NCBI GenBank assembly: GCA_005223125.1
Contig: NJBH01000031.1
Span: 1-46,974, forward strand
Reading direction: 5' to 3'
Source of the DNA: Promethearchaeota archaeon Loki_b32
Lineage (GTDB): Archaea > Asgardarchaeota > Lokiarchaeia > Sigyniarchaeales > SOKP01
Length of the DNA: 46,974 nt
A program made the position numbers and the translations under genes. The notes under the pieces were generated by a model that worked only from the letters and a program-made list of their open reading frames with translations, was not told the DNA's origin and made no database searches. Shown piece by piece: positions 11,051 through 23,507 of the stretch. The first letter of the stretch is position 1; the number at the start of each line of letters is the position of its first letter.

Positions 11051-11315
11051 TAAAACCACTTGTTAAATATTCTATTCTTTAAAATCAAAAATAAATGAAT
11101 TGAAACTATCATTGATCAAATTCAAACATTACTATCGATAATTTTTATTATTAATGTTTCTTTAATTCACATTTTAGTAGTTTTCGAAAATGAAATCGGA
11201 AAATAATGTAGTAAAATGATTCAATAGAACTTTTTTGTGTTTTCACAAAAAGGATAGCGTTATATAGAGATTCACCATAACAATAACTATTCTAATAAAA
11301 CTTTGAGACAAGAAT

Positions 11316-12683
11316 ATGAAAACAAAAACCAAAAATTTAGTGTTTTTATTAATAATAGGGCTTGTTTTTCCTTTCCTTCTTAATTTTAACTTTAATTTAA
11401 ACAGCGAAGATAATACTAGTTCAATTAACCCAAAAAGTTCGGGAGATTGTTCAGGTTCTATATTACAGGCATCAATCTATATTGATGGTTTTGCCACCGG
11501 AATGGGTGCACATAATTGGACCTGGGCAGAAAGTCAATCGTGGTGTTCTGGTGCAGGAACTTGGAGTAACCCATATATCATTGAAAGTCTTACCATTGAT
11601 GGTTTAGGATTAACAATTGGTATTCAAATAAGAAACTCGAATGCTTTTTTCATCATTCAAGGTTGCACGATTTTGAATTGTGTTATAGGAATCTATTTAA
11701 ACAACGTAAATAATTCTCGGTTGATAGAAAACAATTGTAGTTTAAACGAGAACGCGATAATGGTTCTTAATAGTAATAATAATACCATCTCCGGAAACAC
11801 CGTAAATGGTGGTAATTCTCCCATGGGAGGAGGGATAAATATACACACAAATTGTCGTTACAATAATATCACGGGGAACACTGTAAATAATCACGTAAAT
11901 AGCTATGGAATACAATTATATGATAGATGCAATTTCAACAAAATCTTGGGAAACTCTATTAAAAACAACAATTGGGGAATTATTTTATCGATATATATAG
12001 AGAGTTTAGATCATAATGATTTTACTGAAAATATCATTTATCATAATACTATAGGGATATATCTTGATTCGGGGTGTATTAATAACTCATTTTATAAAAA
12101 TTTCTTTCTCCAAAATGGAAAACATACTGTTGATGATGGAACTGATAACACGTGGAATAGCACGACACTTGGCAATTACTGGGATAATCATACAGGTCCA
12201 GATGCTAATAGTGATGGTATTGTAGATAATCCATATGCATATATCGGTGGTTCTGCGGGAAGTATAGATTACTTGCCAATGGCTGAAGATGGTGCTCCCA
12301 ATATAACGATAATTACACCTAGTGAAGGTGACAGCTTCGCGAGTGTTGCTCCCTCTTTCGAGATAGAGGTTGTTGATATTTATGTATGGGAGATGTGGTA
12401 TACGATTGATGGAGGATTACATAACTACACATTTACAGAAAATGAGATGATTAACCAATCTGCGTGGGATGCCTTACCTGAAGGAAGTGTTGCAATTACG
12501 TTTTTCGCAATAGATATCGTAGGAAATGAAGCGTCTGAGGAAGTGACAGTAATCAAGAGCATTCCAGCTGGTGGATTGGACCCGGGTATTATAATAACTA
12601 TTATTATCGTTTCTGTAGTAGGAGGAGTCGCAGTTATAAGCGTCGTTTACATATTTATGAAAAAACGAGCGACACTAGCATAA
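11316..12683 (+). CDS. Membrane-anchored NosD/CASH right-handed beta-helix surface protein
   Basis: N-terminal signal/TM, WCSGAGTWSNPYIIE, N-x-I-x-G-N repeats, GNYWDN..GPDANSDGIVD.PY, Ig-like domain, C-terminal TM followed by KKR. Confidence 0.85.
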   Translation: MKTKTKNLVFLLIIGLVFPFLLNFNFNLNSEDNTSSINPKSSGDCSGSILQASIYIDGFATGMGAHNWTWAESQSWCSGAGTWSNPYIIESLTIDGLGLTIGIQIRNSNAFFIIQGCTILNCVIGIYLNNVNNSRLIENNCSLNENAIMVLNSNNNTISGNTVNGGNSPMGGGINIHTNCRYNNITGNTVNNHVNSYGIQLYDRCNFNKILGNSIKNNNWGIILSIYIESLDHNDFTENIIYHNTIGIYLDSGCINNSFYKNFFLQNGKHTVDDGTDNTWNSTTLGNYWDNHTGPDANSDGIVDNPYAYIGGSAGSIDYLPMAEDGAPNITIITPSEGDSFASVAPSFEIEVVDIYVWEMWYTIDGGLHNYTFTENEMINQSAWDALPEGSVAITFFAIDIVGNEASEEVTVIKSIPAGGLDPGIIITIIIVSVVGGVAVISVVYIFMKKRATLA

Positions 12684-12908
12684 TTCTTAATTACATTAGT
12701 TCTTCTTTTTTTTATTTATCCATAATTCTAAGAGAACACAAAACAAAGATTATTCTTGACCGAATAAAAGAAGATCATTCAAATGTTATGCTTGTGAACA
12801 AATTTTATGTATTTTGGTTATTTTTTTAAAATTTCTTCTTAAAATCTATTTTAACATAGTTTATCTCCTATTATTATGTAAAATTGATGCAAAATAAGAA
12901 AAAGTGTC

Positions 12909-13358
12909 TCAGTCAGTGATACGAAGAATTTTGATTTTTTCTAAAAATCTATCGAAATGAGGATCAAAACTTACAATCTTATCAATTTGATGGTGTTGAC
13001 ATAAAACAATTGATGATACATCAACAAAACTTATTGGTCTTGAGTCTTTCAAATCGATGGTATTTATTTTCTTAAATAATTCCCATGTTTCAGATTCTAA
13101 ATACGATTCAAAATGTAAGACTGTGGCAATTTTTTGTTTTCCCCATATTAAATTTCCGAGATGGTTTAATACATTGACGTTATTATTGGAACGCACAGCT
13201 GCTAAAGTTGTGACTTCACTAATGATAAGATTGGAACTATATAATAATCCATGCTCTCCCAGACTAAGTAATTTCAATATTTTTTCACTTTCTTGTGCAT
13301 GTTGATCTTTAGGATGACACAACCCCAAATAAAAGCCTGTATCAAGAAAAACCCCCAT
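12909..13358 (-). CDS. PIN-domain (VapC-like) toxin
   Basis: VFLDTG, IISEV.T, ISFVD and IVSFDPHFD. Confidence 0.88.
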   Translation of the reverse strand: MGVFLDTGFYLGLCHPKDQHAQESEKILKLLSLGEHGLLYSSNLIISEVTTLAAVRSNNNVNVLNHLGNLIWGKQKIATVLHFESYLESETWELFKKINTIDLKDSRPISFVDVSSIVLCQHHQIDKIVSFDPHFDRFLEKIKILRITD

Positions 13359-13379
13359 TATTCTCACCATTATACTGAA

Positions 13380-13664
13380 TTATTCATTATAAATATCTTC
13401 ATCATCTCTATGGCCGAAGGAAGCTTTTTCATCATAAATTACATTCTTAAGTTTATTTCTCGCTTCGATAATCCGCTCAGATTTTTCAAGACTTAAAACT
13501 GGCATATTAGAGACTAATTCCACCAATTTTTCAAAATTATCATTAGCTAATATTAAACAATAATCAAGTATTTCTATCTGCGTAGGTTTTCGCCCTAGTC
13601 TTAGTGTTAATTTAGCTTGTAACTGTTCCAATGCTTTTTTATTTTGTATTTTCACAATCGACAT
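13380..13664 (-). CDS. Probable antitoxin for the downstream PIN toxin
   Basis: Small gene directly upstream of the PIN gene, with a DNA-binding-like N-terminus and acidic tail (DDEDIYNE). Confidence 0.7.
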   Translation of the reverse strand: MSIVKIQNKKALEQLQAKLTLRLGRKPTQIEILDYCLILANDNFEKLVELVSNMPVLSLEKSERIIEARNKLKNVIYDEKASFGHRDDEDIYNE

Positions 13665-13832
13665 ATTAATATACCTCATGTATACAAATATACTATATAT
13701 ATATTAATATTTATTATGAAGATTAAAAATTTAAATTTTTCTTGAATGATATTTTTCCATTTAGAGGAATCATAATATACACTTAACAAAAAAATGGTAT
13801 ACTTTATATACCTATTATACTGTATATACCAT

Positions 13833-21820: not shown

Positions 21821-22096
21821 TTATTGAATATCTTTTATTTTTTTAATTAAATCCTTATTATCTTTCCCAAAAATATGTATATATGTGTCTTTCTCTTTTT
21901 CAATATCAAATTTAGATGTTATACCTCGATTTTTTAATTCTTCAAAGAGATCCCATAATGAAGCATCAGATGTATTTGCGGCTCGCTCCAGTGTATCTCC
22001 TTTTTGATATAAATCAAGGGCTACTTCTATTTTTTGTTGTCTAATTCCGGTATTAATTATTTTTCTTACAATTGTAGCTCTATCTATACCAAGCAA
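21821..22096 (-). pseudogene. UPF0175-like antitoxin, probably 5'-truncated, with no partner toxin
   Basis: DRATIVRK...ALDLYQKG.TLERAA...SLWDLFEELK.RGI. No convincing start codon. Confidence 0.55.
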
Positions 22097-22199
22097 TTTC
22101 GCTATACTAAAATCTAATTAGTAAATATTCTTATATACAATATTGTCTATACAAACATAGGTCAGGTTAAAATAGATCTAAATTAAATTTTTCTTAATA

Positions 22200-22496
22200 T
22201 TGAAGTTGAATGACTTAGAGAGAATTAATCAATTATTAGGTTGGTATAGTATAAAGAGAAAATACATTTCTGGGTTAGTCTTAACGGTAATTGGAACTTT
22301 TGTCTTGATAGTAGATTTGATAGGGCTACTTTATATCTTTCCAGATCAAATTGTTTACCATTACAATGTAATTGTTTACAATGGACCTTTGATTAGGTTG
22401 TATGTGGGGATTATAATGGGGGGCATAGGGGGATTACTTTTGTTAATTGGATTGCCATTATTAATCATTAACACTAAAAAGAAGAAAAAGCTCTAA
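22200..22496 (+). CDS. Small two-TM membrane protein (start uncertain)
   Basis: Two hydrophobic stretches and a basic C-terminus. Confidence 0.55.
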   Translation: MKLNDLERINQLLGWYSIKRKYISGLVLTVIGTFVLIVDLIGLLYIFPDQIVYHYNVIVYNGPLIRLYVGIIMGGIGGLLLLIGLPLLIINTKKKKKL

Positions 22497-22719
22497 AATT
22501 AGCACTTCATTCGATTATTATCCCTGAGAATTTTAAAAAAGAGATTCTATGGGTCTTATTGAAACACTTCGCAATAATTAATTTTTATAAATCATTAAAA
22601 CATTCTTAATTCAAATAATTGATAATTTCTTTTAGTTTCACTAGATTTTTTTCCCTTTTTAAAAATATCAAGTAAGTTTAAATGATTTTATATAATCTGC
22701 AATTGTAATTAATAAATCA

Positions 22720-23107
22720 ATGCGAATTTTAAGTTAATCAATAAAAAAAGAAAAAAAGGCATTTTTATCATATTAGCATTTTTATGGGCAATTGCAACTA
22801 TATTCATAAGTGCTGACAATCTGAATAATCAGAATTATATATATAATGATAGAAATTTCGAGTTTGAAAAATCGAAGAACAGCCTTAAGTTTTCTGGATC
22901 ATATACTAATATAACAATTAATGACCTTCCAGGAAGCCCAAATAATTGGGCTTGGGCAAAAACTCAACCATGGTGTTCTGGTTCAGGAACGCTATTAGAT
23001 CCGTATTTAATTGAAGATCATATTTTAAAAATGTACAGAAGAATGGAGGCGATCCACATTGAAAATTCAATTTCTTCTTATTTTATAATTAGAAATTGTA
23101 CATATTA
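22720..23107 (+). pseudogene. 5' remnant of a NosD-type surface-protein gene
   Basis: Early stop and frameshift, then NNWAWAKTQPWCSGSGTLLDPYLIE...YFIIRNCT*. Confidence 0.8.
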
Positions 23108-23159
23108 ACATCCATTTCTCTATAAATTTAAGAAGACAATAATTTCAAATGAGATTTTT

Positions 23160-23507
23160 TTAGATATACATACCTTCAGGAGGAGGTTTATAATAAGGAG
23201 TTCGATTTCTATAAATTTCTCTCAATATATCTCTAAAAGTCCCAAAATCTGAAGTTCTAATTAGGTCACTCCAATCGAAGGTTTGAGGGTTATTTTTTAA
23301 CTGATCATAAGTTTTACGTTTTATAGGATCGATTAACGTGTCATAAGCTTCCTTTACCTTGATAAATTTCTCCTTCGCTTGAGGATCTGTCTTATTAAGA
23401 TCAGGATGATATTTTTTAGCTAACTTTCGATATGCGACCTTAATATCCTCTTCAGTGGAATCTTTCTCAATACCTAAAAGGTCATAATAATCTTTTTTCT
23501 CATTCAT
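23160..23507 (-). CDS. J-domain-only (type III DnaJ-like) protein
   Basis: DYYDLLG, YRKLAKKYHPD and AYDTL. ATG at 23507 follows AGGAGA. Confidence 0.9.
   Translation of the reverse strand: MNEKKDYYDLLGIEKDSTEEDIKVAYRKLAKKYHPDLNKTDPQAKEKFIKVKEAYDTLIDPIKRKTYDQLKNNPQTFDWSDLIRTSDFGTFRDILREIYRNRTPYYKPPPEGMYI

Follow-up and report, generated by a model that had tools for sequence, protein, structure and literature searches.

The lrp locus and the gene tails in its island

The contig NJBH01000031.1 of the Asgard archaeon Promethearchaeota archaeon Loki_b32 (assembly GCA_005223125.1; the entire contig, 46,974 nt, is termed the window below) carries a 12-kb island of accessory genes, which is bounded by a gene of the Lrp/AsnC regulator family (lrp) on the left and by a DnaJ-domain gene and an EamA transporter gene on the right. 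The resident lrp (10544..11050, + strand; Pfam HTH_AsnC-type and AsnC_trans_reg; the true start may lie slightly later) is the left anchor and is syntenic with tusA, dsr and hdr genes in relatives; its nearest relatives are found in Promethearchaeota metagenome-assembled genomes (MAGs). The right flank comprises the DnaJ-domain gene (23160..23546, -; Pfam DnaJ) and the EamA gene (23615..24622, -; Pfam EamA), the latter being the drug/metabolite transporter (DMT) gene of an earlier note on this DNA. The flanking genes point into the island from both sides, lrp rightward and the other two leftward, and the hdr, dsrEFH-like and tusA genes are located left of it. The MAG is a short-read assembly of 4.13 Mb in total with 4.6% contamination.

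The island is divided by leftover copies of lrp, each comprising the last 50-230 bases of the gene. Repeats were found by self-BLASTN, and the lrp scars were scored with an lrp nucleotide hidden Markov model (HMM) against 40 shuffled islands, the maximum of which was 8 bits. Of lrp, the island contains five tail copies and one internal piece; a tail of the DnaJ gene and a piece of EamA are also present, and all of these are on the strand of the parent gene. The earlier note had claimed that the ends of lrp, the J-domain gene and the DMT gene recur here in parent orientation; self-BLASTN recovered all of them, the lrp pieces scored far above the shuffles, and the same strand was confirmed throughout.

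Scar 1 (12739..12793, +; HMM 20 bits) is decayed, with its last codons altered, and shares its right flank with two related genomes, G018 and G067 (relatives are given by such labels), where the flank stands behind other left junctions. Scar 2 (14649..14731, +; 56 bits at 14649-14727) has an in-frame stop at an Arg codon, and its left junction recurs in three other genomes, each time followed by a right cargo of its own. Scar 3 (16026..16258, +; self-BLASTN and 220 bits at 16025-16253) is chimeric, with 96% identity over its 233 bp: the first ~9 codons represent a diverged allele and include a stop, and identity to the resident lrp is complete over the last ~203 bp. The 203-bp identity that the earlier note reported for this scar holds for this larger part. 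Scar 4 (17283..17342, +; 30 bits) and scar 5 (19400..19458, +; 28 bits at 19400-19455) are short, and the junction of the latter is 99% identical in G041. Two short lrp pieces follow at 22507..22575 (+; 18.5 bits at 22542-22575). The interval 22508-22575 had been taken for an lrp C-terminus as a whole; a weak tail part of ~25 nt is present, albeit not significant alone (E 1.7), and the remainder is an internal piece corresponding to codons ~132-143, which another study's contig continues as lrp from 22574. Many scars are altered at the same Arg codon, from CGA/CGG to TGA/TGG (14695 and 19421 in the window; L006, L015, L018, L020 and L022 elsewhere), which suggests C-to-T decay at CG.

The DnaJ-gene tail scar (20672..20763, -; E 1e-17) shares 88% identity with the resident gene. 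The EamA fragment (17336..17499, -) is fused tail to tail with lrp scar 4 through a 7-nt shared sequence, and the same fusion is found at 97% identity in G018. The fragment lacks the last ~16 codons of the gene and is shorter than the DMT 3' region proposed at 17336-17515.

The cargo between the scars begins with a gene for a NosD-type beta-helix protein with a C-terminal membrane anchor (copy 1, 11316..12683, +; Pfam NosD), followed by a PIN-domain gene with a putative antitoxin, VapBC-like (12909..13679, -; Pfam PIN; blocks 94-95% identical in G018 and SCS4), and by a putative antitoxin with a PIN-like gene (13794..14592, +; neighbours in the ESM Atlas are PIN clusters; block 95% identical in 33X4). 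An SRPBCC-like gene with a MarR gene occurs twice (copy 1, 14771..15886, -; Atlas SRPBCC clusters and Pfam MarR; copy 2, 19502..20616, -), with third-position bias in both genes, and the longer repeat that contains them (14681-15948 and 19409-20678), which was missing from the repeats named in the earlier note, is 84% identical. NosD copy 2 (17823..19319, +; Pfam NosD) matches G041 at 98% in its 3' part; other strains' contigs join across internal 66-72-nt repeats in this gene (18285-18730), which suggests that the repeat number varies. Farther right are a HEPN and minimal nucleotidyltransferase (MNT) pair (20914..21739, +; Pfam), found behind lrp scars in G053 and G020, and a UPF0175-like gene (-) with a small membrane protein gene (+) (21821..22496; family scan of open reading frames, ORFs), both of which recur at the locus in relatives. 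Remnants comprise a copy of the post-lrp intergenic sequence with a NosD 3' fragment (16671..17229, +; self-BLAST 90% and 81%) and a NosD 5' remnant (22854..23102, +; tblastn); NosD 3' ends, likewise absent from the earlier note, are present three times in the island. Pfam scans of the 12 intact island ORFs, in which the second MarR copy had no scan of its own, detected no integrase or transposase family, in agreement with the earlier note. No copies of island blocks were found on other contigs of the Loki_b32 genome, which ties the cargo pool to the lrp locus.

Tails and cargo in related genomes

The pattern is found throughout the genus: we detected 47 lrp tails in 23 of the 42 related genomes having DNA from the locus, a lower bound because the contigs of many relatives stop inside the island. 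All 47 reach the 3' end of lrp, while their 5' ends lie 41-391 nt from the gene end (median length 112 nt). No orthologous lrp 5' fragment was found among the loci of the related genomes, the sole 5' matches being two distant paralogues. Near-full-length lrp relics occur in G018, G005 and G067. Fragments of the DnaJ, EamA, DUF4184, radical-SAM and PfpI genes are also present at the locus in relatives, but are rare. Where both flanking genes share one contig, the interval between lrp and the right flank ranges from ~450 bp in G052, in which the site is almost empty, up to 17 kb in G008.

Compared with the resident lrp of the same genome, the pooled tails have 226/111/567 mismatches by codon position, with proportions of synonymous and nonsynonymous differences (pS and pN) of 0.51 and 0.09. 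These values are similar to those between resident genes (pS 0.64, pN 0.09), and a self-copy under neutral decay would be expected to show a pN of at least half of pS. Most tails are nearer to the lrp of other species than to their own resident gene. The four short scars of the window show third-position bias, and the resident gene ranks only 7th, 15th, 15th and 17th of 27 as the nearest allele, supporting a divergence of these scars as functional alleles of other lineages. The tails in general are formerly working alleles, with scar 3 and the DnaJ and EamA pieces as exceptions, and the in-frame stops in scars show that decay came after the allele phase. The proposal that the scars are orthologue ends from relatives thus stands for the four short lrp scars, not for the DnaJ piece, the EamA piece and most of scar 3.

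The sequence behind a scar's stop matches the sequence behind intact lrp in other species. The SRPBCC-MarR genes are located behind four intact lrp genes, directly so in G003, G006, G009 and G014, and behind four scars with equal spacing; the membrane-protein and NosD-promoter flanks are likewise found behind both intact lrp and scars. Similarity among tails that share a flank exceeds that of random sets (p=0.004, related genomes not being independent). The unit is a tail together with its downstream cargo.

These units appear in different combinations. A junction between a PIN-gene end and lrp codon ~144 is present in four genomes and leads to another right cargo in each of them; three distinct left junctions were found for the PIN cassette that follows scar 1; and scars 1 and 4 of the window have a common left junction and different right sides. 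Most likely, an illegitimate junction at one position formed once, in which case the exchange fell in the 55-80 nt between the junction and the stop. Contigs from other studies show further orders, e.g., lrp joined directly to the HEPN unit. Junction matches of 80-84% were discarded as noise of gapped alignment in AT-rich DNA.

Block identity exceeds that of the core genes in three relatives, namely 33X4 (95% versus 66-81%), G041 (96-98% versus 76-81%) and G018 (94-97% versus 84-88%). The tract of high identity ends at the scar's stop in 33X4, begins at a scar in G018 and ends ~65 nt beyond a scar in G041. These comparisons support that cassettes have been exchanged between species at the lrp locus. 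In G008, a 63-nt comparison favoured neither tail as that of the donor. The flanking core genes are themselves mosaic across species, their nearest neighbour changing along them (the first segment of the lrp mosaic comparison was inflated by indels and was not used).

The variability extends beyond the island. The hdrC, dsrE2, dsrH-F-E and tusA genes (7766-10312 in the window, and orthologues) are mosaic between species, and the amino acid identity of dsrH to Loki_b32 is bimodal (about 56-70% or 81-88%). In G018 (L160:8883-20222) and G067 (L161), a broken near-full-length lrp and island cargo lie beyond the hdr block, between a vapBC pair and a second tusA; the whole hdr-dsr-lrp block may have been re-acquired beside an older relic. 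In G020 (L167:8200-10487) and SCS4 (L165:774-3700), lrp tails and cargo directly follow tusA, and the hdr-dsr block and intact lrp seem to be missing at that position. Right of EamA the sequence varies as well: DUF4184 is duplicated there, and radical-SAM and PfpI occur as partial copies (L003, L005-L008, L012, L014, L036, L039). A further weak direct repeat of the window lies outside the island (37876-37958 versus 38589-38671, 72% over 83 bp).

Origin of the array

We consider it probable that the interval between lrp and the DnaJ/EamA genes is a hotspot of horizontal transfer run by host recombination in two steps. In the first and rare step, incoming DNA from a relative would undergo homologous recombination within lrp or upstream of it, and the far end of this DNA would join illegitimately inside the recipient's lrp via a few shared bases; lrp would be restored with new cargo behind it, and the old tail and old cargo would be displaced downstream. 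A mirror of this step may proceed from the DnaJ/EamA side. In the second and common step, of which the reassortment is observed and the enzyme presumed, an existing tail would offer a ready second homology arm, and crossovers within the 50-250-nt tail would add, swap or delete units of tail and cargo and move them across species, on linear DNA or looped-out circles. The scars would decay and be trimmed afterwards. The earlier note had invoked gene capture by homologous recombination in core genes, with which the cross-species exchange and the absence of a recombinase nearby agree, but homologous recombination alone makes no new scar, so that a prior illegitimate join is needed.

Among the junctions for which both parents could be traced, microhomology was seen at those of lrp with EamA (7 nt), of a DnaJ tail with lrp in G001 (5 nt) and at three more (~3 nt). 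Such short shared sequences and the spread of breakpoints would fit homology-facilitated illegitimate recombination (PMC5361080) or the circle model for rhs (PMC2935791). Genes of the RadA/Rad51 family are present in the genome. Scans for Rfam families, tRNAs, terminators and inverted repeats found nothing at the junctions.

Several observations weigh against the two-step model. Many junctions have no traceable parent, the 3-nt microhomologies are a weak signal in DNA of 30% GC, and genome searches found neither a ComEC-type uptake gene nor Ku. For the DnaJ scar, the nearest sequence is the resident gene, and its mismatches are 5/2/4 by codon position; both the lack of synonymous bias and the closeness to the resident, which the earlier note had named as refuting its reading, were thus found for this scar and not for the four short lrp scars. 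The EamA piece is likewise nearest to the resident EamA gene, and monophyly of the two SRPBCC-MarR copies was not rejected in the copy tree (p-AU 0.21). Decay did not rise significantly with distance from lrp (rho 0.12-0.16). Scaffolded G006 has 0 tails in 820 kb where ~8 were expected. Finally, the product of the first step, which is itself reconstructed, could also arise by duplication followed by deletion.

The last point leads to an unlikely, yet the strongest, alternative, in which scars begin as tandem duplications within one genome and are trimmed by deletion, synonymous divergence results from later replacement of the resident gene's end with alleles from relatives, and genes are gained by ordinary replacement between the two flanks. 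The ~203 bp of scar 3 identical to the resident, the resident-like DnaJ and EamA pieces, the paired copies of NosD and SRPBCC-MarR, the near-full-length lrp relics and the mosaicism that core genes show anyway all suit duplication. It predicts, however, the same cargo behind the resident and the scar, and the cargos differ; besides, one junction with four right cargos would require reuse of the tail for crossover, which is the second step of the model we favour.

Elements that integrate in the ends of protein genes restore the gene, displace its tail and accrete in tandem, and this geometry is what an origin from decayed integrative elements, or from a recombinase acting in trans on an attachment (att) site in the lrp 3' end, would explain. 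The genome does encode two tyrosine recombinases above the Pfam cut-off on other contigs (PF00589 matches on C36 and C3, plus one on C21 below the cut-off; no match on the window contig), but they lie at least 39 kb from the nearest scar on their contigs, one of them among ordinary metabolic genes, and the genome search found no serine recombinase or resolvase. The 5' ends scatter across 350 nt, the inspected junctions have no site in common, inverted repeats at cassette ends are only AT-rich chance ones with none recurring, and 36 different parent genes in one genome bear tails. Given the variable breakpoints, we regard this origin as improbable and largely excluded.

It is very unlikely that the island is a co-assembly stringing together variants of several strains: despite the short reads and the contamination of the MAG, and although other runs assemble the region only in pieces with alternative joints (no contig among the runs of other studies spans the whole island), three of the junctions are found again, at 90-99%, in genomes assembled independently, the left junction of scar 3 (16026) is spanned by contigs of two studies, the scars show internal decay such as in-frame stops, and similar fragments occur in a gap-free genome from a different family. 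The repeats are not due to chance, and the collapse of a repeat may have contributed only to the exactness of the 203-bp identity.

The lrp locus is not special in the Loki_b32 genome, since the pattern recurs across it. A genome scan recovered 43 downstream co-oriented tails behind 36 genes, versus five upstream and one inverted, with 58% of mismatches at third positions and a median insert of 2 kb; some of these hits are possibly decayed paralogues. The parents include rpl2, gyrA, uvrC and the genes for S-adenosylhomocysteinase and an EF-2-like protein, and no preference for convergent gene pairs was found (p=0.53). Among other relatives, scans of 400 kb each gave two tails in G023, one tail and three heads in G038, which is gap-free, and not a single downstream tail within 25 kb in G032; the single-record genomes G006 and G023 contain N gaps and are not closed controls. 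Displaced 5' heads upstream of the parent gene, the mirror of tails, number nine in Loki_b32 (C58, C24, C18) and occur in G038 (1.04-1.35 Mb). Longer near-identical repeats (91-98%) are present at C36:123264-124613 and C37:171235-172584, and at C58:104497-106142 and 109338-110983.

As a tentative extension, which we hold to be possible rather than probable, the displaced tails might constitute a genome-wide self-propagating cassette system, in which dozens of core-gene ends anchor their own accessory pools and exchange them across species diverged by 15-30% via crossovers in only 50-100 nt of imperfect homology. If true, this would imply that an unusually permissive, undescribed recombination or end-joining pathway is a main route of gene gain in these archaea.

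Comparison with known systems

Many hotspots of gene acquisition lack mobile elements, and how additive gain works there is an open question (Oliveira et al. 2017, PMC5635113). The lrp locus preserves footprints of the process as junctions, alleles and reassorted partners across 23 genomes, and suggests host recombination alone as the means by which Asgard archaea pass toxin-antitoxin and surface-protein genes from one species to another. Tail scars also provide an easily scanned genome-wide marker of past gene capture. In the literature searched, from which most subscription papers fell outside, we found no description of the pattern in Asgard archaea.

Hotspots without mobile elements were reported to diversify by recombination of flanking core genes, modelled as double-crossover replacement (PMC5635113). 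The lrp locus shares with them the high gene turnover between two core genes, the mosaic flanks and the absence of an integrase, but its tails permit additive gain and internal shuffling. Integrons and CALINs, clusters of attC sites lacking an integrase, have been described in archaea, with an enrichment of integrons in the Asgard group (Ghaly et al. 2022, PMC9668308). Arrays of units of one or two genes rich in toxin-antitoxin pairs are common to both; on the other hand, the lrp array has no IntI nearby and no attC-like hairpins were seen, its separators are coding gene tails, and its cargo lies on both strands. As scar age does not follow the position in the array, the ordering of an integron is lacking; the notion of an integrase-free cassette-like array put forward in the earlier note holds for the tail-bounded, exchanged units. 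Site-specific elements in protein-gene ends differ by a fixed att core, a constant breakpoint and a recombinase gene, none of which was found in the island.

Inserts with long target duplication (Furuta et al. 2010, PMC2853133) lie, as here, between long variable direct repeats without other mobile elements, and the lrp island is comparable in its repeats of 55-233 bp (above 30 bp), an insert below 20 kb and the near-empty allele of G052. It differs in that no restriction-modification genes are among the window cargo and that the repeats are diverged alleles (75-88%), five deep. The C-terminal displacement arrays of rhs and mafB, for which host recombination was proposed (Jackson et al. 2009, PMC2935791), similarly consist of an intact gene followed by strings of its own co-oriented 3' fragments of variable length, each with cargo; in some genomes the unit is joined to the intact gene, in others it is an orphan, and no integrase is involved. 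The anchor of the lrp array is, however, a conserved regulator whose protein barely changes, not a polymorphic toxin whose C-terminal tip varies and which has an immunity gene; the variable part lies behind the stop codon, both flanking genes contribute, and the cargo is unrelated to the anchor. For the effector-immunity arrays of the Vibrio cholerae type VI secretion system (T6SS), which grow by sequential displacement, rare homology-facilitated illegitimate recombination was proposed to add units and frequent homologous recombination to spread them, and the arrays were compared to integrase-free integrons (Kirchberger et al. 2017, PMC5361080). Our two-step model resembles theirs, whereas the lrp array has no immunity-gene selection keeping orphans and no age order, resides in an archaeal host, and is one case among dozens of genes. 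Altogether, the array works like Rhs/T6SS displacement and long-target-duplication inserts, being a strict member of neither, and is not an integron on the tests run. What is new here is the non-toxin anchor, the cargo wholly behind the stop, the growth from two sides, the reassortment within tails across species and the recurrence over an Asgard genome.

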